Sequence record: OR352940.1
Strand: one strand, 5' to 3'
Source of the DNA: Escherichia phage AV110
Length of the DNA stretch: 64,000 nucleotides
Within the stretch, counting starts at the first letter, position 1; each line of letters begins with the position of its first letter. Both the position numbers and the translations under genes were made by a program. The notes below the pieces were generated by a model. That model was not told the DNA's origin. It worked only from the letters and a program-made list of their open reading frames with translations, and searched no databases. Positions 10,089 to 40,852 of this stretch are shown here, piece after piece.

Positions 10089-11189
10089 TTACGCTGTGAA
10101 GATTTTATCCCACATCGCAACAACTGCATCTCGATTATACTTCTTCCATACTGCTTCAGCACGTTTAACTCGAGCTTCGTATGTGTCAGTGAATTCTAAT
10201 ACAGCTTTTGTGTAAAGCGCAACTACTTCTTTCTTAGGAGTAGAGGAATCAATTTCTACACGCACAGTATCTGGGTCATATTCGAATGTCGCGTGCGGAT
10301 AATCCTTAAAAACTAACTGAATCACAGGGACACCTTTAGAGATGGCTTCAATAGAACTATTCTCTACCGTACCTGTGTCAGGACACGTATTAATAAGTGC
10401 TTTAGCTGTTTTAAGACGTTCCATGATTTCACTGTGTGGAGCATCAATAATAACAGGATACTTAGCCGGTGGTGCCCATTTACTAGGACAGTATCCTGCA
10501 CCATTTTCGCCTAGTGCTTTAATCGCTTCAAGAGCAACATCAGTACGACGCATTTTAGTGTCATAACGTTGTGCACTAATAATCAGATCCGTCGCCGGAA
10601 GAACTTCAGGTTTCTCATTCAAACAAATAACCGGATAATCTTCGGCTTCAAACAACGGATTTGCTCGCCAATAATCATAATCAATTTTGTCAGTCAGACC
10701 TGAAGTCATATAACAATATTTGCGTTCAAATTCACGGAAGGCTTTAGTAGGAGCATAACTCTTACCACCATTCTTATGAATTTGAATAGTCTGGTCCCAA
10801 ATTTGAACAATGCCACGAGATACCGGTTCAAATGGTGTTGCCATAAAATTCTTATGAACTTTAGAGAGACCCGCGTCTTTAATTGCCTGAACGGTTAGTT
10901 TGGTCGGTTCCATTGTAACAACGAAATCATACTCATTAATGCCGGCTAGTTCAACAATCTTACGAGCCATAGTATAACTCATACCTAGACTGAATTTAGT
11001 CAGATGACCAACAGGATGATGATTAACTTTCCAATCACCAAATGTGTCATTATCAAAACCGATATAATCAATATCAGCACCGATGGACACAAGATATTTC
11101 AACACATTTAAATGTACTGCTTCAAGACCACCTTGTACACGGTCAGGATTAAATGGGACTGCACGAGATGGGATAAACATAACTTTCAT
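10089..11189 (-). CDS. GT-B fold glycosyltransferase, candidate DNA hmC glycosyl/arabinosyl-transferase
   Basis: 366 aa; GT4-like N-terminus MKVMFIPSRAVPF...GGLEAVHLNVLKYL and C-terminal E...EAISKGVPVIQ donor-binding pattern; third gene from rIIA, where T4 has gene 60/mobA. Confidence 0.6.
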   Translation of the reverse strand: MKVMFIPSRAVPFNPDRVQGGLEAVHLNVLKYLVSIGADIDYIGFDNDTFGDWKVNHHPVGHLTKFSLGMSYTMARKIVELAGINEYDFVVTMEPTKLTVQAIKDAGLSKVHKNFMATPFEPVSRGIVQIWDQTIQIHKNGGKSYAPTKAFREFERKYCYMTSGLTDKIDYDYWRANPLFEAEDYPVICLNEKPEVLPATDLIISAQRYDTKMRRTDVALEAIKALGENGAGYCPSKWAPPAKYPVIIDAPHSEIMERLKTAKALINTCPDTGTVENSSIEAISKGVPVIQLVFKDYPHATFEYDPDTVRVEIDSSTPKKEVVALYTKAVLEFTDTYEARVKRAEAVWKKYNRDAVVAMWDKIFTA

Positions 11190-29942: not shown

Positions 29943-30305
29943 TTAAAAGAATTTAAATTTTTTCTTGGTTCGTTCATTAAAAGCTTGTTGTACTTGCATT
30001 GTAACACATTTTTCAACATGTGGTGCAAGTTCTGCTTTTCTGTCCTGGTCAAGAACTGCAAAGTCCATTACGATTTTACCATCAACCCAGTCTAGTTTTG
30101 TAATATAGACTATATGATGGGAACCGTCTTCAAGTGTAATCAGAATCTCTTGAATGACATTTTCCATTGCTGAACGGACAATTTTAAGAGATTCATTAAA
30201 CACTCGTTCTTTGCGAATGTCTTCCCCTTCCGAAGAAGGGGATTCATCAACGATTTCTAGATTTAAATCATCGAGATTATTCATCGAAATCTTCCATTTC
30301 GTCAA
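29943..30305 (-). CDS. 40: gp40-position protein (head assembly chaperone in T4)
   Basis: Short acidic ORF between uvsX and 41 as in T4; alternative start at 30284; by synteny only. Confidence 0.45.
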   Translation of the reverse strand: MTKWKISMNNLDDLNLEIVDESPSSEGEDIRKERVFNESLKIVRSAMENVIQEILITLEDGSHHIVYITKLDWVDGKIVMDFAVLDQDRKAELAPHVEKCVTMQVQQAFNERTKKKFKFF

Positions 30306-31449
30306 GGTCGTTTTCTATATCTGCTGCAGATGGAGCATCAGAAGTTTTAACCGGAACTTTAGTTGTTGCTTTGCAATTAATAAGGTCGTTAACAGCGTCA
30401 TCAACTTCTTTAATAGAAGAGATAGCACCTAGTTTATATTTAGTTTCAATTGCATCTCGGAAAGGTTTGTGTTTAAACAACGGTCCCCAGAATTCTACAC
30501 AATCAGTAGCTTTAGCACGCCATGATTTTTCTTCACGAATCATTTCGCCTGTTTCTTCGTCAAGGAATTCACGAGCATACCACCCGGCTTTAGGCTTAAC
30601 TACAAAACCAATTTCAGTTGCCATTTCTAACAAGCCACTGAATGGGTCAATACCGCCATCAAAATTAACCGTGATCGGGAAAGTAGATTTCTCTTTAACT
30701 GTACGAGATTTTTCTGCTTTCAACGTGAAGTCATAACCGGTCAATTCAGTGCCATCTTTAACCTGACGTTTAGAGATAAAGAATACAGTGTTAGCCGAGT
30801 AAAGAATACCTGTACCGCCACCCATAATCTCTTTAGGATACAATCCGCCAATTTCCATTGCTGTATGGTTGATTGCAACACATGGAATATCTTTAATAGT
30901 CAGATAAGGAGTCACAATACGGAAAAGAGATTTAAGTGCCTTAGCACGAGACATATCACCTACAACTTTCTCGTTCAATGCATCTTCAGTTTCTTTCTTA
31001 GATGCAGTATTACCGATTGAATCGATAAAGATAATAACTTTATCACCCCGTTCAATCGCGGCAAGCTGATTAGTCATATCAACTTTAAGTTGTTCGACGG
31101 ATTGAATCGGAGTATGAACTACACGGTCTAAATCAACACCCATTGAACGAAAATAAGATTCTGAAGCACCGAATTCTGAGTCATAAAACAAACAGATTGC
31201 ATCTTTATATTTCTTCATATACGCTGCGACCATAGTTAGTCCAAACAACGTTTTAAAGTGTTTAGAAGGAGCAGCAAAAATAGTTAAGCCTGATTGCAAC
31301 CCTGCATTCAGTGCACCACCTAATGCGATATTCAACATCGGAATACGAGTAGGGACTTCATCACGATTATTAAACAGCTTAGACTTAGTCAAGTCTGCAG
31401 TCATTTTAGAAGTAGAAGCTTTAATCAGACGAGATTTTAAATCAGACAT
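30277..31449 (-). CDS. uvsX: UvsX recombinase (RecA-like)
   Basis: 390 aa; MSDLKSRLIKASTSK..., Walker A and acidic C-terminus DLDEMEDFDE matching T4 UvsX. Confidence 0.9.
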   Translation of the reverse strand: MSDLKSRLIKASTSKMTADLTKSKLFNNRDEVPTRIPMLNIALGGALNAGLQSGLTIFAAPSKHFKTLFGLTMVAAYMKKYKDAICLFYDSEFGASESYFRSMGVDLDRVVHTPIQSVEQLKVDMTNQLAAIERGDKVIIFIDSIGNTASKKETEDALNEKVVGDMSRAKALKSLFRIVTPYLTIKDIPCVAINHTAMEIGGLYPKEIMGGGTGILYSANTVFFISKRQVKDGTELTGYDFTLKAEKSRTVKEKSTFPITVNFDGGIDPFSGLLEMATEIGFVVKPKAGWYAREFLDEETGEMIREEKSWRAKATDCVEFWGPLFKHKPFRDAIETKYKLGAISSIKEVDDAVNDLINCKATTKVPVKTSDAPSAADIENDLDEMEDFDE

Positions 31450-31547: not shown

Positions 31548-32096
31548 TTAACGAGCCCATTTGATGATTTCTGTAATCAAACCATTACGTTCGCTTGCAT
31601 TAAATCCTATAACTTTGTTAGCACCATCATGATTAAGTAATTGATATGTTTGGATTTTGTTATGAATTGCAAACTCTTCAAAATGTGAAATGACTGTATT
31701 AAAACCGAATGAAGACAAAGTAATAAGGTCGTCTTCAAAACTTTCAGTCATTTCGTTACGTGTTAAAATAATTGTGAACACATCATGGTTTTGGCAAAGA
31801 CGAACATAATCCTGTTCATAAACGTCAAGAACCGAGTCAGCATCTTGTCGAATACGTCCATAAACCCAGTTACTAATATATCCACGGTCTAACAGATAAA
31901 TCTTAGTAGGGTCTAAATAATTCAACATCGTTTCGAAACAGCCAACTTCATTTCGAGACTTAACATCGAAACGCCCATCAACTGTTCGTTTAGGGAAATC
32001 AATCTTTACATATCTTTCACTAATTTCCATTATGTCATTAATGAAAGTTGTTTTACCAGCATTATCCGGGCCATCTACTAAAATAATTTTAGCCAT
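31548..32096 (-). CDS. P-loop kinase-like protein (182 aa)
   Basis: Walker A ILVDGPDNAGKTT at N-terminus, small-kinase size; no T4 counterpart at this position. Confidence 0.5.
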   Translation of the reverse strand: MAKIILVDGPDNAGKTTFINDIMEISERYVKIDFPKRTVDGRFDVKSRNEVGCFETMLNYLDPTKIYLLDRGYISNWVYGRIRQDADSVLDVYEQDYVRLCQNHDVFTIILTRNEMTESFEDDLITLSSFGFNTVISHFEEFAIHNKIQTYQLLNHDGANKVIGFNASERNGLITEIIKWAR

Positions 32097-32097
32097 T

Positions 32098-32997
32098 TTA
32101 TTCCTCGATTACGACATCTTCATATTTAGGTATATTATACGGCGAAGAAATTAAAGCATTAAAGTAGATGAACTCACCAAGACCTGGATGGAATACTTCT
32201 TCAGGATTTTCGAAATATTGAATTTTCGGACGCCCTTTAAGAATTTGATAGTACTCTGTTTTAGTTGGTTTAAAAATTCGAATCAGCGCTTCTTCAGGAT
32301 ACTTATTTCTGTCGAAGCTATTATTTGGATCGGTTATATAAAGCGGTTGGCCTAATTGAATTGCACATTCAACCACTTGTTCAAAACGATAGCACGGGTC
32401 ACTAATTCGAAATGGATGAAAAATACCATCTAGATAAATAGGAGCCAAATCACCTACAAGACGCTGCATGATGGAAGGACGTATAACTTTCTGCGTTACG
32501 ATAATCTTATTACCATCTGCACCTGCGTTAACCAGCACTTCTTTTTGACGTTCATTCAACACAGTAGTTTGAAGTGAACGATTAACCGACAACATATCAG
32601 TTTTTAAGAATTCATCAATATAAAAACGTGGTTTATTAGGGTCTGCAGTGATATTGAAATTGAATTCCACATCAAAAGCGCCGTCATATCCAGTGATATC
32701 TGTGATTAGAAAATCACAGTCATAATAAGCAATTAATGAATCAACCACAAATCCATTTTCAGACCAGAAATATTTACGAGTGTTATACGCGTTATCTTTA
32801 TACCATAATGGAACAAACTTAAATTCTGGAAAAAGACGTTCGCATTCTTTAATATCAGATGCATTACGTGGATATGTAATCACATCACCCGGATTAGCAC
32901 GGTGCAAATGAAGTTGGAAGTTGCCATCCTTAAGGATAGCATACTGTCCAGTTTCATAAGACCGCATACTCAAGATTGGTACGCGGAAAATAGCCAT
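32098..32997 (-). CDS. protein at beta-glucosyltransferase position (299 aa), possible glycosyltransferase
   Basis: Occupies the slot between 42 and uvsX where T4 has beta-gt (351 aa); no confident motif. Confidence 0.4.
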   Translation of the reverse strand: MAIFRVPILSMRSYETGQYAILKDGNFQLHLHRANPGDVITYPRNASDIKECERLFPEFKFVPLWYKDNAYNTRKYFWSENGFVVDSLIAYYDCDFLITDITGYDGAFDVEFNFNITADPNKPRFYIDEFLKTDMLSVNRSLQTTVLNERQKEVLVNAGADGNKIIVTQKVIRPSIMQRLVGDLAPIYLDGIFHPFRISDPCYRFEQVVECAIQLGQPLYITDPNNSFDRNKYPEEALIRIFKPTKTEYYQILKGRPKIQYFENPEEVFHPGLGEFIYFNALISSPYNIPKYEDVVIEE

Positions 32998-33713
32998 TAG
33001 TCAAGGAATCCTTTAACATAATCAAAATCACGTTCAAACACATGGGCACTTACCATGGTATGAGTATAATCACCAACTTCTACACCGCATTCGTTAGCGA
33101 TATAATGAAGTAATTTTCCTTGGAGATAAAAATCCAACTGCATAACAACAGCACAGTTCTGAGAACGCATATGACAGTGGGTATAAAGCTTACCATCACG
33201 AATATAATAAGTCACTGAGTCAGTACATGGATATTCAAGTGTTTCGTCTGAATCAAGCAAAGCCTGATCAGAACTTTCTAGAATTTGGAACACAACTCTT
33301 CGGGAGTTAGGCTTCTCTTTAAGTTCTTTTAGAAGAGCTGGTAATTGAGCCGCAATGCGAGGACCATAGAAAGTGTTGAAGTTCGCCGGCAAAACATCTG
33401 ATTTTGGTTTAGAAATAAATTTAGCGACATTAGGATATGTCTTAAACGCTTCTTCTGCGTTGGTACCACCAGAAATCATAAACTTCCAGAAGTCTTCGGC
33501 ATATTCATAAGAGATGCGGTTAATACGTGGGTCGGTCATTTTGAATGATGATGGAGTGTCAACAACTACTGTCATAGACCCAATTTCATTACAACGTCCA
33601 ATACGAGAATCAGTTACGAATTCCGGGTTTTCTAAAATTTCACGATTGACTGCTTTAAATGCGGTTTGAAAATCTGCGGCTTTGATATATTTCATTGTGT
33701 TATGTTTTCCCAT
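32997..33713 (-). CDS. 42: dCMP hydroxymethylase gp42 (thymidylate-synthase fold)
   Basis: 238 aa; TS-like core with catalytic Cys context (LEYPCTDSVTYY...HCHMRSQN); size/position as T4 gene 42. Confidence 0.65.
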   Translation of the reverse strand: MGKHNTMKYIKAADFQTAFKAVNREILENPEFVTDSRIGRCNEIGSMTVVVDTPSSFKMTDPRINRISYEYAEDFWKFMISGGTNAEEAFKTYPNVAKFISKPKSDVLPANFNTFYGPRIAAQLPALLKELKEKPNSRRVVFQILESSDQALLDSDETLEYPCTDSVTYYIRDGKLYTHCHMRSQNCAVVMQLDFYLQGKLLHYIANECGVEVGDYTHTMVSAHVFERDFDYVKGFLD

Positions 33714-33755: not shown

Positions 33756-33995
33756 TTATTTGAATTTCTTGACAATGTTGACATAACGTAAAGCTTCAGC
33801 ATCGATACTTCCAAGAACACTATGAAGAAATGCATCAGCGTAGTATTCCAATTGAACAGGTTCTTTAATCACTTTAGCCGCTTTAGTTTCAAACAGGCCC
33901 ATCAGGGCCTTTTTAAGAATTTGTTCATTAGTGTTCAGATTCATAGTCAAAATCTCTTCATTAAGTTGGTGGTTAAAAGTTTTTCTAGAAATCAT
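33756..33995 (-). CDS. hypothetical protein (79 aa)
   Basis: ORF with ATGA overlap to upstream enzyme gene. Confidence 0.45.
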   Translation of the reverse strand: MISRKTFNHQLNEEILTMNLNTNEQILKKALMGLFETKAAKVIKEPVQLEYYADAFLHSVLGSIDAEALRYVNIVKKFK

Positions 33996-35152
33996 TCCGG
34001 GTACCTCAAAGCGTCATCAGAGTTAGTTATATCAATAATAGATATAGAGTTTTCTGCTAACCCGTTTTTAGATAATTGACGTTTATAATATCTTTCACAA
34101 TATGTACACGTCGTCCCGCAGATTTCATTAGCACAATCGAAATCTGGATGTCTGAACCACCTTTTTTCTAAAAAGCCATCTAACAAAGAGGTTTCAATAT
34201 TTACTGTATGTGAAAACTCAGTTTCGTTTTCAAGAGTGAAAATAGTCTCTAAAGGCTTCCACAGTTCTAACAAATTACCTTCAAACTTTTCAGAAGCGTA
34301 TGCTTCAAGAACTTTCAAAATGTAGTCTGTGCTACCTGTACGTCCTGAAACTTTGAATTGAGTGATACCAATATCATTATAAAGTTTCAAATCTTGAGGA
34401 CGAACAAAACGAGTTCTCAACCAGTTAAATGGGTCTGTATCACGAGCTTTAATACAGTGCTGCATAGGATATCCGTTTAAGGATTTAGCATCATCAGCTG
34501 TAACATCAGTACTATGGAAAATATAGCAAGAGTCACGATAGCTACAATGTGTTGTATACCCTTTACCAGCATTAGAACAGAACTCATTTACAAGAACTTC
34601 AAATATTATATTGTTCTTATTGCAAAACTCTGCTGCACGCTTCAGGAAAGAAACTGAACGGTTCTTATGAATTCCACAGCAGACCTTTTTGATATTATAT
34701 TGGTCATGCAAGTATTTGATTTGAGTTACAGCATCGACATGTAGAATTGTTGAAACTTCAATCTCAATGTCTTTATTGACTTCACGAACAATTTCCATAA
34801 CAACAGGGTTAGCGATAGTAATACGCCATACGCCTATTGACCAAAGATACTGAACATAATCCTGAATAGCTTTCTTCTTCCACTCAACTAGTTCTCTTTT
34901 TGAACCAGGATTTATCGTGTTGAGTGTATAGTTAAAGCAAATACCTAATTCGTTACAACGTTTAACGTAATCTTCTAACATCTTTTTGTCAACGTCAGGA
35001 AGCCTAAAATCAGGTCTGGCTGCTACAAAAGCCATTTCTCTTGTAGAGCCATATACTTCGTTTATCAAGCTATTAGGATAGGTTTTATTGAGCTCTACGA
35101 TTTTATCAAGAAGAGCTAAATCAAAATTTGTTCCGATTTTAAAAGTATTCAT
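33992..35152 (-). CDS. Cys-rich enzyme of unknown function (386 aa), possible Fe-S protein
   Basis: Several Cys clusters including C-x4-C-x3-C-x2-C near C-terminus (DCANEICGTTCTYCERY); embedded in the sugar-nucleotide cluster. Confidence 0.5.
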   Translation of the reverse strand: MNTFKIGTNFDLALLDKIVELNKTYPNSLINEVYGSTREMAFVAARPDFRLPDVDKKMLEDYVKRCNELGICFNYTLNTINPGSKRELVEWKKKAIQDYVQYLWSIGVWRITIANPVVMEIVREVNKDIEIEVSTILHVDAVTQIKYLHDQYNIKKVCCGIHKNRSVSFLKRAAEFCNKNNIIFEVLVNEFCSNAGKGYTTHCSYRDSCYIFHSTDVTADDAKSLNGYPMQHCIKARDTDPFNWLRTRFVRPQDLKLYNDIGITQFKVSGRTGSTDYILKVLEAYASEKFEGNLLELWKPLETIFTLENETEFSHTVNIETSLLDGFLEKRWFRHPDFDCANEICGTTCTYCERYYKRQLSKNGLAENSISIIDITNSDDALRYPE

Positions 35153-35211: not shown

Positions 35212-35613
35212 TTATAGATTCGGTTTATACGATTTAAATGTTTCGAATTCGCCTTTATTCATAAGAGCTTTGAATTCGTCAGGACGCATAGCTTTGTCGT
35301 CGATAATCCAATCATATACTGGTTTATGTGTTAGCAAATTATGGTACTTCAAGCCAATGTTTGCCAAGTTCTGAATCAGACTTGGGAGAATGTCAATTGC
35401 TATACGACCAGGACCTACTGACTTCATACCGCGAGCAGTGTAAAGCGTTATTGTATGCCCTGCATCATACAGAGCATTAATGGCAGACACCATTTCGACG
35501 TCCGGTTTGAAGTTCACATAATCACGATTGTTATTCCACTCTGTTATACAATCATCGACATCAAAACAAAGATTAAGCATGTTTTCTACACGGTGCATTA
35601 GATTCGTTCCCAT
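35212..35613 (-). CDS. HAD-superfamily phosphatase-like protein
   Basis: Motif I LCFDVDDCIT, motif II ITLYTAR, motif III K...DD; start may be Met-6 (TAATG-coupled at about 35598). Confidence 0.55.
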   Translation of the reverse strand: MGTNLMHRVENMLNLCFDVDDCITEWNNNRDYVNFKPDVEMVSAINALYDAGHTITLYTARGMKSVGPGRIAIDILPSLIQNLANIGLKYHNLLTHKPVYDWIIDDKAMRPDEFKALMNKGEFETFKSYKPNL

Positions 35614-37283
35614 TGATGAGTGATATCGCCACCGATTGGACGATAAGAAACACCAGTTTCTTTATCAGTTAGTACCCATTTACCAGGATTTTTTGTAATC
35701 AGAGTAGCCGTTACAGGTTCTGCTACGTCATAACTAATAGAGCCGTCCTGAAGTACACGGCCCATGTTACGTAATTGCTTAGTCAGAAGTTCCATACCTT
35801 TATAATATGCGGCTACCGCTTTAAGTGGATTATTCTTGAAATAACCACCTAATGCAATCCAGATAATTGCTACAGCCAAATGATGATATTCATTAAACGA
35901 ACTCAGCTTTCCATATTTGTAAACTAATGGATTGATGTTAATAGTCACATTACAAGTTGTTTCATCAATAGTAAACTGTCCCCAGGTCGGATTAGCGTTG
36001 AATTCATCATAACCTGAAACAGCGTAAAGCACTTTAGCTTCGTCGTACAATTTCGGCCCGTAAATCTTGGTTTCGCCAAAATATCCACGAGGGTCGATAA
36101 ACTTGACTTCGCCGTTATCAGTAATCATAGTATTACTGAAGTTCGGGTCACCATGAATAACAGAGTACTGTCCCTGAGAACGGTTATGATAACGAATAAG
36201 GTGTTCTAAAGCTTGTTTCAGCATTGGCTTCAGACGTCCAATCTTAGTGTAGTTCACATGTGTGATTTTACCAAATGAATCAATCAATGGTTGAATGCTT
36301 TCACAACGATCAATAACTTTCGTATAGAATTCTTTAGTGAAATCACGACGAACAGTTTCAGGACTTACAAAATAAGTGTCTGCGCTGAATTTCAGTGCAT
36401 CTAAAATTGCATCAATAATTTGTGGACGAGCAAGACTTGATTTTGATTTAATATATTCAAATGCCGGCTTACCTTTAATGCGTTCCATTTCAAAGTTATT
36501 TTCATTAACAGAAACTAACTGAGGAACTGAATCTGATTTCACTTTCAAATACCACGAAATCTCATCTTTCTGAAGAGCTCGACCCTGTTCGGTTAATGCG
36601 AATTTAGTTACAGTTTCTTCGCCAATTTCAACTGCATTAAAACTACGGTTCAGTTCACGAACTTCATGGGCCTTTTCAAGTTTAGGCATATCACCAAGGT
36701 CGATGATATTCATAAGCTCTGATTTATTGAATGCGCCGCTGTAAAGGAATTCTACGAAATCACGTCCTTTGCAGTATTCATGAATTTCCTCATCGGTAGA
36801 ACCCATATAGAATTCCCAGTCTTTGAACTGATAAATTCCTACAACATTACCGCCTGTTTCACCTACATTAGTGATATTTTCACCATCGAAATTATACCGA
36901 CATTCATCACCCTTAACATAGATTGCGTTAACATTCCAAGACCAAGAACCAAAATCGGGAATAATATCACACCAGTTAACAATTACATTATGGCCGTCTA
37001 AATCTTTGTGTAATTTAGCAAGAGCATAAGCAGAACCATACGCTTCATCAACTGTACGAATAGTCACATTGAACCCTTCTTGCTCACAATAAGCTCGAAC
37101 AGTTTCAGCAAATTTTGAATGAACTACTACAATAATTTCATCTGCGCCAAGGTCAGAATAAATTGTATACAAATTGCTCAGAATAGTGTCTTGCTTATAG
37201 TTAACAAGCACCTTAGGAATATGATGCGTTATTGGATACAAACGAGTTGCCAGTCCAGCACCAAGAATAACAGCTTTTTTCAT
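35598..37283 (-). CDS. bifunctional sugar-1-phosphate nucleotidyltransferase / APH-like sugar kinase
   Basis: 561 aa; N-terminus AVILGAGLATRLYPIT (RmlA/GlmU-type NTase signature); C-terminus VIHGDPNFSNTMI and FIDPRG (aminoglycoside/choline-kinase Brenner and DFG-like motifs). Confidence 0.7.
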   Translation of the reverse strand: MKKAVILGAGLATRLYPITHHIPKVLVNYKQDTILSNLYTIYSDLGADEIIVVVHSKFAETVRAYCEQEGFNVTIRTVDEAYGSAYALAKLHKDLDGHNVIVNWCDIIPDFGSWSWNVNAIYVKGDECRYNFDGENITNVGETGGNVVGIYQFKDWEFYMGSTDEEIHEYCKGRDFVEFLYSGAFNKSELMNIIDLGDMPKLEKAHEVRELNRSFNAVEIGEETVTKFALTEQGRALQKDEISWYLKVKSDSVPQLVSVNENNFEMERIKGKPAFEYIKSKSSLARPQIIDAILDALKFSADTYFVSPETVRRDFTKEFYTKVIDRCESIQPLIDSFGKITHVNYTKIGRLKPMLKQALEHLIRYHNRSQGQYSVIHGDPNFSNTMITDNGEVKFIDPRGYFGETKIYGPKLYDEAKVLYAVSGYDEFNANPTWGQFTIDETTCNVTININPLVYKYGKLSSFNEYHHLAVAIIWIALGGYFKNNPLKAVAAYYKGMELLTKQLRNMGRVLQDGSISYDVAEPVTATLITKNPGKWVLTDKETGVSYRPIGGDITHQWERI

Positions 37284-37324: not shown

Positions 37325-37468
37325 CTAGTTAAAGCATTCATACTTTGCCTGTAGACCAATCATAATCCATCCAATTACAAGTGTTGGAATCATTACCGGA
37401 GCCGTTAAGCTCCAGTAGATAGTCATGGCAAGCATCAATAGTAAAAGTCCTATTGTTATTGCTTTCAT
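37325..37468 (-). CDS. small membrane protein (47 aa)
   Basis: Hand-found ORF MKAITIGLLLLMLAMTIYWSL..., ATGA-coupled to upstream SIS gene; sits where T4 has imm/imm.1. Confidence 0.35.
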   Translation of the reverse strand: MKAITIGLLLLMLAMTIYWSLTAPVMIPTLVIGWIMIGLQAKYECFN

Positions 37469-38100
37469 TGTTCGCCTCGTAACATGGCACCTAGTGCACC
37501 ACCTGGATGGAACTTAAGGAAGTCATTAGAGGTAAATCCACGTTCAGACGAAAGGTTGATAGCGAACGTATCGATAAGCGCTAACAACAATGTAGTAGAC
37601 ATTGTCGGAGCTAAAGAGTTCTCGTCAACTTCTACCGCGATACCGGTACAGAACGTATAATCAAAAAGAGCTTCGTATTCTTGTGGAATGTCAGGGTTAC
37701 AATGTAACAGAATCTGTTTAACCTGAGGACGAATCATACGAAGATGTTTAGCAACACCTATCATTTCTTCAGTCTTACCAGAACGACTGATGTGAACTAA
37801 TACATCATTAGGTGCAATAAATCCTGCGTCACCATGAGAATAATGCCCAGTGTTCAAGTACATACTTGGGATACCGAGTGAAGCAAAAGTCTCGGAAGCT
37901 TTAGTTGCGATATTAGCGTTCTTACCAACACCTGTAATAATTACTCGGCTTTCATAATTACTAAGTCCCGGGCGTCGAAGAGTTTCTAGAATAGCATTAT
38001 AACGAGCAGGGTTTTGACTAATTACTTTAGCCATAGTGGCAAGAGATGAAGCTTGTTTTACGATTGCGTCAATAGCGATAGTGATTGGTGTAGTTTTCAT
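37465..38100 (-). CDS. SIS-domain sugar-phosphate isomerase, arabinose-5-phosphate isomerase (KdsD/GutQ)-like
   Basis: 211 aa; KdsD-type SIS motifs (TFASLGIPS, HGDAGF, ISRSGKT, LAPTMSTT, GFTSNDF..HPGGALG); lacks CBS domains. Confidence 0.7.
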   Translation of the reverse strand: MKTTPITIAIDAIVKQASSLATMAKVISQNPARYNAILETLRRPGLSNYESRVIITGVGKNANIATKASETFASLGIPSMYLNTGHYSHGDAGFIAPNDVLVHISRSGKTEEMIGVAKHLRMIRPQVKQILLHCNPDIPQEYEALFDYTFCTGIAVEVDENSLAPTMSTTLLLALIDTFAINLSSERGFTSNDFLKFHPGGALGAMLRGEQ

Positions 38101-38140: not shown

Positions 38141-40852
38141 TCAAAAATCAAACATATCGAACAGAGATGCTTTCTTCTCGTAATCGAGTTTAGCTGCTGA
38201 TGTGAATCCTTCAAGTGGTTTAATAAATGTCTTCTCAAGGAGAACAGTGTAGTCCATCCAATGAAGTACGTCGTCTTTAATTAAATCTGTGATTTCAGTA
38301 CCAGAAGGCCATGCGATACATTTATCACCGAATGGGTTTCCTTCACGTAAAGGCAGAACATATACTTTTTCACCTTCTACAACTTGTGGTGCATCAATAT
38401 TACCTTTGATAGCTCGGTTATATGTCAGAATTCCACGAATATGGAACGGGCATTTAGGACCCGGGAATCCACCTACGTCATATTTAGCAATGTTATTCGC
38501 AGAAGATACCGACGCGATGCTAATATAATTCAATTGACGGAATTCTTTTTCAAACTCTTTAAAATATTCTTGTAATGATTCTTCACCTTCTTGAAGCATA
38601 CGACGAATACATTCTTTAAGAGCTTTCTGTACTGCTTTAGGAGTCGAAGATTTCTGAGTCTCTAGACCCATGATTTTGAGTTTAGGCTCAGCGTAACGAG
38701 TGCCTTCCATATCCCACACGTTTAATGCATAACGTTTCTTACCAGTCCAGAATCCACCAATACCTTTAGAACCGAGCGGAGGGCCAGCAATAGCTTCTCG
38801 GTCCATGAACATTAAGTGTTGTTTATTGTTCATGTATTCACACATTTCACGGAAACCTCTATCAATAGCAGGTTCCATACGTTCACGAGCGAACTTATCT
38901 AAGAAGTCTACCCAATGGTTGGTATCACGGAATTTAGATTCACCAACCTTATCGATAATTTTATCGGCAGATACGTAAATAGAGTCTGTATCACCATATA
39001 GAACGAAAGCTTCACCTTCTGTACCACAAACTTCATTCAGATATTCATTAACTTTACGTTCAATCCACTGTAAAGCCATTTGTCCGAATGTTGTGATTGC
39101 AGTAGCATTACGCAAATCATAATAACGGAACCAAACGTTGCCAAGTGCACCATAAAGTGAGTTGATAAGCAATTTACGGTTAATTTGTGCGGTCATACCT
39201 GCAACTTCAGTACGTTGAGCTCTAAACAACATTTCATTAAGAGATTTAGCAGACAACTTTTTAATCTTTTCTTTAATCTCATCACTGAAGTCGAAACGAT
39301 AATCAACATCTAATGGTTCGTCAACAGAAAGATTAGGATTATGCAATGCCTCTTTAATTATTTCACCATTACGTTGAGCTGCAAGCATATAACCTTTATG
39401 TTCTTTACGTTGATTAAAGACCTTAGTGATTTCAGTTGGAACTACACCATCACGGTCTTTATAATACATCATGCCGTTAGGAGAGCAACTGTACACATCT
39501 GAAGGACGTTCAGCGATTGCGTTAATATAATCATGCAATGGAGCTACTTTAAACGTTCCTGCTATTGTTTCCGGGCTAATATTCACTTGGCGAATAATAC
39601 TTGGATACAGAGATGTAAGGTCGAAACTCATTACATATTTGTATCGATTTGGAATAGGTTCCTTAACAAAAGCGCCAGGATAAGGTTGAACCGGGTGAGA
39701 ACGACCTTGTGGAATCACCTTGTTTTGTTCTTTAAGGCTATTAAAAATAATAGCATCCCAAGTTTTAATTGGACTGAACACAGATTGAATCTGAATTTTA
39801 GCATAATAACCCATGTCCAAGCTCAAGTTGATGAACTGACGCTTAGAATCAATTTGCAATACACGATACACGTCGATAATGTTATAAGAAATATATCGTT
39901 GGTGATTGCTTTCACGAAGCTTAGAAATAGGGCCGTCATATTTCAGTTTACCAACGTTCAATTCAAATTCTGAAATGTAATCCAGAGAATACGACGGTTG
40001 ATTGGTAAAAGAGAATTTTTTGTAAAGGTCAATGTAATCAAGAACAGAGATACCGAACAATGTAATGATTTCACGAGAACCATACATGTTTTCGATAACT
40101 TTAACACGAGTTTTACGATGCGGCGATAAACGTTTCGCAGTAGATTCGCCAAAAATATTCTTGATTCGGTTATACACATATGGAATATCAAATGACTCAA
40201 CGTTCCATCCAGTCAAAATGACAGGAGTTTTCTGTTGCCAGAAGTTGAGATATTCCATCAACAATTCTTTTTCGTTATCGAACGGCATATAAATGATTTT
40301 ATCGATAATTTCAGATGGAACTTCATCACCGCCTTGTTCTTGAAGCTTAGCAGCGATTTCAATAGACCATTCTTCTACATTACCATATGGAGAATTCAAT
40401 AGATCAAATACGTAGAACCTGTCGTCAATTGAGTCATAATGGGTGATAGCATCAATCGGATGTTTTGCTTGTGACGGCTCAGGGAACCCGTCCGGAGATG
40501 TTACTTCGATGTCGAAGTTAGCCACACGAATTTTTGTATGGTCGTATTTGATTTCATAGTTATAAGTGTCAGACAAATACGCCAATTTGAAATCGTCCAT
40601 GCCAAGTGCTTCAAGTCCGATATCTTCCATGCGTTTAATCCATTGGGAGGCATCACGCATATTAGCGAACAACTTACGAGTACACGGCTTACCGTAGATA
40701 TCGAAATATTTCGTAGCCTGACTTTCCGGACAATGAGCAAACAGTGATGGTTTATATTCTACTTCACGAGTACGTTCACGGCCATTAGAATCGATGTAAC
40801 GTTCAAAAATTGAATCACCAATCTGTTCAACCGTTAAGTAAAATTCTTTCAT
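38141..40852 (-). CDS. 43: DNA polymerase gp43 (family B)
   Basis: 903 aa; exo motifs FDIEV, YNIIDV, pol motifs DLTSLYPSI, YGDTDS; N-terminus matches RB69 gp43 as recalled. Confidence 0.95.
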   Translation of the reverse strand: MKEFYLTVEQIGDSIFERYIDSNGRERTREVEYKPSLFAHCPESQATKYFDIYGKPCTRKLFANMRDASQWIKRMEDIGLEALGMDDFKLAYLSDTYNYEIKYDHTKIRVANFDIEVTSPDGFPEPSQAKHPIDAITHYDSIDDRFYVFDLLNSPYGNVEEWSIEIAAKLQEQGGDEVPSEIIDKIIYMPFDNEKELLMEYLNFWQQKTPVILTGWNVESFDIPYVYNRIKNIFGESTAKRLSPHRKTRVKVIENMYGSREIITLFGISVLDYIDLYKKFSFTNQPSYSLDYISEFELNVGKLKYDGPISKLRESNHQRYISYNIIDVYRVLQIDSKRQFINLSLDMGYYAKIQIQSVFSPIKTWDAIIFNSLKEQNKVIPQGRSHPVQPYPGAFVKEPIPNRYKYVMSFDLTSLYPSIIRQVNISPETIAGTFKVAPLHDYINAIAERPSDVYSCSPNGMMYYKDRDGVVPTEITKVFNQRKEHKGYMLAAQRNGEIIKEALHNPNLSVDEPLDVDYRFDFSDEIKEKIKKLSAKSLNEMLFRAQRTEVAGMTAQINRKLLINSLYGALGNVWFRYYDLRNATAITTFGQMALQWIERKVNEYLNEVCGTEGEAFVLYGDTDSIYVSADKIIDKVGESKFRDTNHWVDFLDKFARERMEPAIDRGFREMCEYMNNKQHLMFMDREAIAGPPLGSKGIGGFWTGKKRYALNVWDMEGTRYAEPKLKIMGLETQKSSTPKAVQKALKECIRRMLQEGEESLQEYFKEFEKEFRQLNYISIASVSSANNIAKYDVGGFPGPKCPFHIRGILTYNRAIKGNIDAPQVVEGEKVYVLPLREGNPFGDKCIAWPSGTEITDLIKDDVLHWMDYTVLLEKTFIKPLEGFTSAAKLDYEKKASLFDMFDF

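Follow-up and report, generated by a model that had tools for sequence, protein, structure and literature searches.

Which reaction is catalyzed by the protein that Escherichia phage AV110 encodes where T4 carries its beta-glucosyltransferase? The question concerns a 64,000-nucleotide stretch of the phage genome (OR352940.1; hereafter the window), which contains, in this slot, a gene for a 299-amino-acid (aa) protein, here called GT1. An earlier sequence-only reading left the protein unassigned, and suggested that it might be a divergent sugar transferase, for example one adding a second sugar to 5-hydroxymethylcytosine (hmC). We propose instead, with only modest confidence, that GT1 is a GT-B transferase that adds the first, base-proximal D-arabinofuranose to 5-hydroxycytosine (5hoC) in DNA, using UDP-arabinofuranose (UDP-Araf) as the donor. 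Arabinosylated 5hoC, a DNA hypermodification that is widespread in phages and was recognised only recently, protects against restriction enzymes and against some CRISPR systems. The assignment of GT1 is not new, since it has already been published: Lee et al. (Nucleic Acids Research 2026, PMC13326640) relied on structure prediction to name RB69 gp46:47 and DLP3 gp79 'arabinosyltransferase 1'. A putative first arabinosyltransferase for 5hoC has thus already been described, and GT1 is its near-identical orthologue.

The GT1 family

GT1 is encoded by a single long open reading frame (ORF) with an ATG start, found in the ORF listing of the window exactly as the sequence-only reading had described it, on the minus strand. 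It is a genuine gene, because it is conserved in 138 protein clusters (36-99% identity) and, by tblastn, in 348 phage records, including phages of Escherichia, Acinetobacter, Klebsiella, Serratia, Enterobacter, Proteus, Yersinia, Shewanella and others. Over the 5.8 kb around it, more than 150 Escherichia and Shigella phages match at 98-99% identity, and the window phage is an RB69-like Mosigvirus. Homology to the named members is full-length, with 98.7% identity to RB69 ORF047c plus ORF046c, 45.6% to DLP3 gp79 and 48.5% to TH1_063 of Shewanella phage Thanatos. In the RB69 reference record the gene is split into two pieces by a sequencing error, the window copy being one intact ORF and otherwise no different; the BFVD models of both RB69 halves superpose on the GT1 model with a TM-score of 0.98 each. 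Only 229 relatives emerged when 1.84 billion representatives were searched exhaustively with a profile, which makes this a small family centred on viruses. The label 'unassigned' still applies in Pfam, in NCBIfam and in PHROGs, where GT1 belongs to PHROG 3891 ('unknown function'; E 3.6e-155, residues 1-298), but no longer in the 2026 literature.

Sequence comparison links GT1 to none of the obvious candidates. GT1 is shorter than T4 beta-glucosyltransferase (299 versus 351 aa) and, as had been noted, not recognisably similar to it; homology was rejected by hhalign profile comparison (probability 0.1%). Homology to the 366-aa glycosyltransferase encoded elsewhere in the window (hereafter GT2) was likewise rejected (hhalign 0.3%). 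In the PDB, no solved structure was matched by GT1 alone (phmmer), and a profile of 55 family sequences found no glycosyltransferase at E <= 10 (hmmsearch).

Predicted fold and conserved residues

Structure prediction and structural search, as the sequence-only reading had advised, indicate a GT-B fold, with two Rossmann-like beta/alpha/beta domains separated by a cleft. T4 beta-glucosyltransferase lies outside the 60 best structural matches, so no close structural homology to it was seen. Foldseek likewise points to the GT-B fold, and by its TM-scores GT4 transferases (0.56-0.61) rank above non-hydrolysing UDP-GlcNAc 2-epimerases (0.45-0.52). Among proteins of this fold, T4 alpha-glucosyltransferase and the GT4-type retaining enzymes sucrose-phosphate synthase (6kih), BshA (6n1x), PimA (2gej) and MshA (3c4q) are only 8-12% identical to GT1, which is 40-100 residues shorter. 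Membership of CAZy GT4 or Pfam Glycos_transf_1 was considered and rejected: GT1 matches neither Glycos_transf_1 nor Glyco_trans_4 in Pfam, and it is not filed in GT4 because the EX7E motif is absent.

Across 55 family sequences, with identities down to 37%, 29 residues are invariant, and in the structure model they fall at the C-terminal ends of beta-strands in both Rossmann domains. They include M11-R12-S13, K23-D24-G25-N26, R33, R74, N148 and Q151 in the N-terminal domain, and F193-x-P-F-R197, D200, Y203, T222-x-P-N225, K246 and H270-P-G in the C-terminal domain. The model places R197, K246 and H270-P-G, together with a conserved E/D275, in the region following C-domain beta-strands, where GT-B enzymes keep basic residues for the donor diphosphate and, on the helix after C-beta4, an acidic residue for the ribose; these are candidates for such roles. 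Clustering of this kind is to be expected where a GT-B enzyme binds its donor and its acceptor. As a compact GT-B transferase of the metal-independent type, GT1 would hold the UDP-sugar in its C-terminal Rossmann domain, through F193-x-P-F-R197, T222-D-P-N225, K246 and H270-P-G...E275. The N-terminal domain would bind the acceptor and contribute to catalysis through the residues listed for it, with D100 in place of N148.

A distant relative occurs in the Serratia phage PS2, an hmC/glucosyl phage with a true gene 42, beta-gt and beta-alpha-gt. It is a 308-aa protein (FF83_gp042; locus L005, 3953-4879) encoded immediately after gene 42 and before the beta-gt genes. It matches the GT1 family with hhalign 99.2% at 19% identity; nearly all invariant residues are replaced, which may mark it as a decayed remnant or as a protein put to another use.

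The base, the sugar and the first transfer

The gene preceding GT1 had been taken for gene 42, and this identification fails. Its product, a member of the ThyA superfamily, has only 25% identity to T4 gp42, is essentially identical to PDB 9iqc, 9ir2 and 9iqu (E 2.9e-160), and has an Asn where E. coli ThyA has D169 (RSQN; RSND in T4 and PS2). Proteins of this type are flavin-dependent 5-hydroxy-dCMP synthases, with activity shown for RB69 gp48 (PMC13326640). The association with GT1 is close: among 52 loci collected from IMG/VR, 48 had enough upstream sequence for this count, and 45 of these carry a ThyA-like gene of the D169N type at most 2.5 kb upstream of GT1, which in 39 of the 45 ends at most 150 nt from GT1.

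On the sugar side, a complete UDP-Araf donor pathway adjoins GT1, comprising an isomerase, a bifunctional kinase and uridylyltransferase, and a HAD phosphatase. An AfhF-like phosphatase of this kind converts Araf-1,5-bisphosphate into Araf-1-phosphate (as cited in PMC13326640), and PMC13326640, citing He et al., ascribes UDP-D-arabinose pyrophosphorylase activity to AfhE, the HY126 homologue of the bifunctional protein. The route proposed from ribulose-5-phosphate to UDP-Araf requires no epimerisation (PMC13326640). The DNA of RB69-type phages contains di-arabinosyl cytosine (PMC13326640, PMC13390438), and nuclear magnetic resonance places alpha-Araf directly on O5 (PMC13326640).

GT1 is most likely the first transferase rather than the second, because the second-sugar enzyme is the separate GT2. 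Its gene lies about 21 kb from the pathway cluster, and the protein is essentially identical to the solved glycosyltransferase of phage HY126, which corresponds to RB69 gp3, in complex with UDP (PDB 9iqz/9ir0). This enzyme is unrelated in sequence to GT1 and confined to poly-arabinosylating lineages: its 211 records come only from Mosigvirus-type coliphages, which are di-arabinosyl, and Acinetobacter phages, which are tri-arabinosyl and carry two copies each. In vitro, the GT2 homologues gp76/77 of DLP3 arabinosylate RB69 DNA further (PMC13326640). Thus the idea of a sugar transferase in this slot survives, with the fold and the published assignment behind it, in altered form: the base is 5hoC rather than hmC, the sugar is arabinofuranose, and the notion of a second sugar fits GT2 and not GT1, given the distribution of the two and the linkage of GT1 to the ThyA-like gene.

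In the proposed pathway, the ThyA-like flavoenzyme would convert dCMP into 5-hydroxy-dCMP (5hodCMP), a step demonstrated in the literature, and the hydroxylated base would enter DNA through a dNMP kinase, as shown for the gp1-type kinase, and the polymerase. GT1 would then glycosylate the 5-hydroxyl group with UDP-Araf supplied by the neighbouring isomerase, kinase/uridylyltransferase and HAD phosphatase, and GT2 would attach the second arabinose, which is partly shown for the DLP3 homologues. By analogy with the T-even phages, the acceptor is most likely 5hoC already in DNA.

Organization of the locus

The genes of the module lie on the minus strand (Table 1) in the order DNA polymerase, SIS isomerase, bifunctional 561-aa protein, HAD phosphatase, U32 protein, 79-aa ORF, ThyA-like enzyme, GT1, thymidylate kinase (Tmk)-like kinase and uvsX. 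GT1 shares with T4 beta-glucosyltransferase (GT63) the slot between a ThyA-family gene and uvsX, and both would be GT-B enzymes transferring a sugar from UDP to a modified cytosine. The earlier placement in the beta-gt slot therefore stands (the T4 order is gene 42, beta-gt, segA, uvsX), but not its claim that GT1 sits exactly between its neighbours, since the kinase gene separates it from uvsX. The ThyA-like stop and GT1 start codons overlap (TAATG), and the kinase start lies 2 nt past the GT1 stop. A promoter and terminator scan of this three-gene block found no internal signal above chance, and the block has the appearance of one transcript whose genes are coupled in translation.

Table 1. 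Modification genes and adjoining genes in the window
Feature	Coordinates	Strand	Matches and sources
GT1, predicted GT-B fold glycosyltransferase (RB69 gp46:47, DLP3 gp79, Thanatos TH1_063, PHROG 3891); proposed first (alpha) arabinofuranosyltransferase on 5hoC	32098..32997	-	
ThyA-superfamily 5-hydroxy-dCMP synthase, 'gene 42' position	32997..33713	-	Pfam Thymidylat_synt E 2.4e-15; PDB 9iqc E 2.9e-160
Tmk-like P-loop nucleotide kinase, 182 aa (RB69 gp45)	31548..32096	-	PHROG 761 thymidylate kinase E 5.7e-45
uvsX	30277..31449	-	
Conserved 79-aa ORF between the U32 and ThyA-like genes	33756..33995	-	PHROG 8601 (function blank)
Peptidase-U32-family protein, 386 aa, conserved cysteine clusters (RB69 gp50)	33992..35152	-	Pfam PF01136 E 7.3e-11
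HAD phosphatase, 133 aa (RB69 gp51, AfhF-like)	35212..35613	-	PHROG 1238 E 5.3e-43; NCBIfam capsule biosynthesis phosphatase E 4.3e-13
Bifunctional sugar kinase and sugar-1-phosphate uridylyltransferase, 561 aa (RB69 gp52:53, AfhE-like)	35598..37283	-	Pfam NTP_transferase E 8.8e-10; weak APH-type kinase matches; NCBIfam nucleotidyltransferase matches; PMC13326640, PMC6024577
SIS-domain arabinose-5-phosphate isomerase, 211 aa (RB69 gp55)	37465..38100	-	Pfam SIS; NCBIfam KpsF/GutQ E 8.8e-32, KdsD E 3.8e-30
DNA polymerase	38141..40852	-	
GT2, 366 aa (RB69 gp3, HY126 glycosyltransferase), second (beta) arabinose	10089..11189	-	PDB 9iqz/9ir0 E 7.2e-249

DNA or free nucleotide as the acceptor

Several observations weigh against transfer of arabinose to DNA by GT1. 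A search of the available literature found no demonstrated transferase activity for any member of the family, and Thanatos TH1_063 moved no xylose to plasmid DNA, dCMP, dCTP or cytosine (Brandt et al., PMC12838424), all of them acceptors that lack the 5-hydroxyl group. No sequence-level tie connects GT1 to any CAZy or Pfam glycosyltransferase family (no Pfam match at E <= 0.1 and none in NCBIfam), and in the helix matching that of the GT4 EX7E motif, H270-P-G-L-G-E275, there is a single acidic residue. The family is also acidic, with a median isoelectric point (pI) of 5.3 and a median net charge of -9, which is untypical of DNA-binding enzymes; this acidity, together with five invariant or near-invariant Arg/Lys residues in the N-terminal domain, speaks for a nucleotide acceptor. 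Charge cannot, however, separate a DNA from a nucleotide acceptor, because the beta-glucosyltransferase of PS2 is acidic too (pI about 5.85).

A serious, though less probable, scheme puts attachment of the first sugar ahead of replication. Here GT1 would arabinosylate free 5hodCMP, the Tmk-like kinase would phosphorylate the arabinosyl-5-hydroxy-dCMP, and the polymerase would insert a ready-glycosylated dNTP, with the second and third sugars added later on DNA. The coupling of the ThyA-like, GT1 and kinase genes supports this scheme, as does the retention of the trio in viruses as far apart as T4-like phages and unrelated environmental ones. In the 49 loci on which the kinase was counted, its gene is directly downstream of GT1 in 33 and within the cluster in 44 by tblastn, with two more by hhalign, hence in at least 46; the near-universal trio of ThyA-like, GT1 and Tmk-like kinase genes is reported here for the first time. 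Moreover, since the gp1-type dNMP kinase of RB69 already converts 5hodCMP into 5hodCDP (PMC13326640), the Tmk-like kinase is left without an assigned substrate. A donor that served gp76/77 gave no activity of DLP3 gp79 on 5hoC-DNA, and the authors of that study cannot distinguish first arabinosylation on the mononucleotide from that on DNA (PMC13326640). The spare kinase and the negative result on DNA keep the nucleotide-level scheme alive.

Natural fusions, also reported as new here, join GT1 to other enzymes of the pathway. A C-terminal Tmk-like kinase is fused to GT1 in P0231, P0235 and P0258 (PHROG 3891 plus PHROG 761; hhalign 94% to the kinase family), and the reverse order, kinase then GT1, is found in P0227. 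In six further proteins (P0140, P0147, P0148, P0153, P0161 and P0166), GT1 is preceded by an N-terminal KdsC-type HAD domain with the motifs DFDGI, TGDS and GDDxYD. The partner domains were identified by PHROG hidden Markov models, local hhalign and motif reading, BLASTP having failed to do so. A relationship between this HAD domain and the 133-aa HAD phosphatase of the window was considered, and no relation was detectable (hhalign 0.8%). The kinase fusions favor the nucleotide-level scheme, but fusions prove a common pathway rather than consecutive steps, and GT1 is fused to a phosphatase of the sugar branch as well.

Other considerations also count against glycosylation of the free nucleotide. 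Where a virus has no gp1-type kinase, phosphorylation of 5hodCMP may simply fall to the Tmk-like kinase of the module. To our knowledge, all characterised DNA glycosylation, in T2, T4, T6, SP-15-type and other phages, is post-replicative, and we know of no precedent for nucleotide-level, pre-replicative glycosylation of a DNA base, which would be the first case, if true. Finally, 5hoC readily enters DNA in vivo without GT1 (PMC13326640). Transfer by GT1 to 5hoC in DNA thus remains the reading we prefer.

The composition of the module in environmental viruses also bears on the role of GT1. In a clade comprising loci L035-L048, L050, L058 and L004 (4739-7594), the gene order is flavodoxin-like protein, ThyA-like enzyme (D169N), a GT1 of about 350 aa that is extended at its C-terminus, and kinase, and no arabinose-donor genes were found within 10 kb. 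This suggests that the core module consists of the hydroxylase, the first glycosyltransferase and the kinase, to which genes for the sugar nucleotide have been added in other lineages. The sugar that these viruses link to 5hoC probably comes from the host.

Activities other than first-sugar transfer

A published result conflicts with the transferase assignment. TH1_063 (300 aa) is encoded directly after the ThyA-like TH1_062 and ahead of a Tmk-like gene, as GT1 is, and this syntenic homologue was described as a UDP-xylose pyrophosphorylase. In that study, purified His-TH1_063 incubated with UTP, xylose-1-phosphate and pyrophosphatase gave UDP-xylose, as detected by liquid chromatography-tandem mass spectrometry (PMC12838424). 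GT1 might accordingly be a UDP-pentose pyrophosphorylase, making the donor from UTP and pentose-1-phosphate, and no transferase at all. We consider this improbable. The predicted fold is GT-B rather than that of a sugar-1-phosphate nucleotidyltransferase, membership of which was rejected since GT1 lacks an NTP_transferase match; a true domain of this kind is instead present in the 561-aa neighbor, whose HY126 homologue has the corresponding activity. In addition, the environmental clade retains GT1 without sugar-activation genes nearby. An E. coli uridylyltransferase carried along in the purification could account for the TH1_063 product, as could glycosyl transfer running backwards between UDP and the sugar-1-phosphate, as in GT-B phosphorylases. 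The two papers (PMC12838424, PMC13326640) therefore disagree on the function of the family, and the predicted fold favors an arabinosyltransferase.

Equally improbable is the original proposal of the sequence-only reading, in which GT1 extends an already glycosylated base with a second sugar. It is compatible with the GT-B fold and with the di-arabinosyl cytosine in phage DNA, but di- and tri-arabinosylation track GT2, whose DLP3 homologues perform such an addition, and GT1 lies close to the hydroxylase gene in nearly all loci. Furthermore, Thanatos cytosine carries a single pentose (PMC12838424, PMC13326640), and in this phage the GT1 homologue is the sole glycosyltransferase-like gene of the modification cluster, no match to GT2 being found there.

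Least probable of all is a GT-B-like protein that is not a transferase, such as a donor-remodelling enzyme of the UDP-sugar 2-epimerase type, to which the lowest Foldseek E-values point (4neq, 7vza and 1f6d, all non-hydrolysing UDP-GlcNAc 2-epimerases; about 1e-6), but whose TM-scores fall below those of the GT4 transferases and for which the proposed route to UDP-Araf offers no epimerisation step.

U32 proteins and chorismate mutase in the module

The window encodes a U32-family protein upstream of the ThyA-like gene. U32-family members such as TrhP, RlhA and UbiU/UbiV are O2-independent, prephenate-dependent hydroxylases acting on RNA or ubiquinone, and prephenate, their co-substrate, is made by chorismate mutase. 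By analogy, the window protein may be a candidate hydroxylase providing an anaerobic, O2-independent route to 5hoC. A literature search found no paper linking a phage U32 protein to O2-independent cytosine hydroxylation; the phage protein has been called a 'sugar or heterocycle reductase' (PMC13326640).

In three divergent loci of non-T4-like phages whose polymerase is of the DnaE type, the order is Tmk-like kinase, GT1-like protein and then U32 protein, the U32 genes lying at 10954-12051 in L057, 5783-6865 in L054 and about 10882 in L059. Their U32 proteins are 47-50% identical to that of the window, with the cysteine clusters conserved, and their GT1-like proteins retain most of the family invariants. 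A search of the fetched flanks found no cryptic ThyA-like gene. In some modules, a U32 gene thus appears, from gene content, to be present in place of the ThyA-like gene, which is reported here for the first time.

A chorismate mutase of type II, scoring above the Pfam CM_2 threshold, is encoded between the U32 and ThyA-like genes in lineages of Edwardsiella, Klebsiella, Yersinia, Pectobacterium, Serratia and Proteus phages (L007, Proteus phage Pm5461, 4908-5294; L009, L013 and L015, about 9067; L021, 9008; L023, 9070; L025 and L027, 8962; L031, 8915), and it occurs only in loci having U32. In the window phage, this position is occupied by the 79-aa ORF, which is conserved between the two genes in Mosigvirus, Yersinia-phage and Pectobacterium-phage lineages. 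This ORF has no Pfam match, and the possibility that it is a cryptic chorismate mutase was tested and rejected, the two being unrelated.

Significance

The outcome of the proposed pathway would be DNA in which each cytosine carries one or two arabinoses, blocking restriction enzymes and CRISPR nucleases. According to a citing paper, phage Bas46 became susceptible to a defence system encoded on a plasmid when its arabinosyltransferase 'Aat' was deleted. The step assigned to GT1, in which the base receives its first sugar, is the least understood in the pathway, and whether it takes place on DNA or on the nucleotide bears on the enzymatic production of glycosylated DNA, and on predicting which defences are evaded by coliphages of the type used in therapy.

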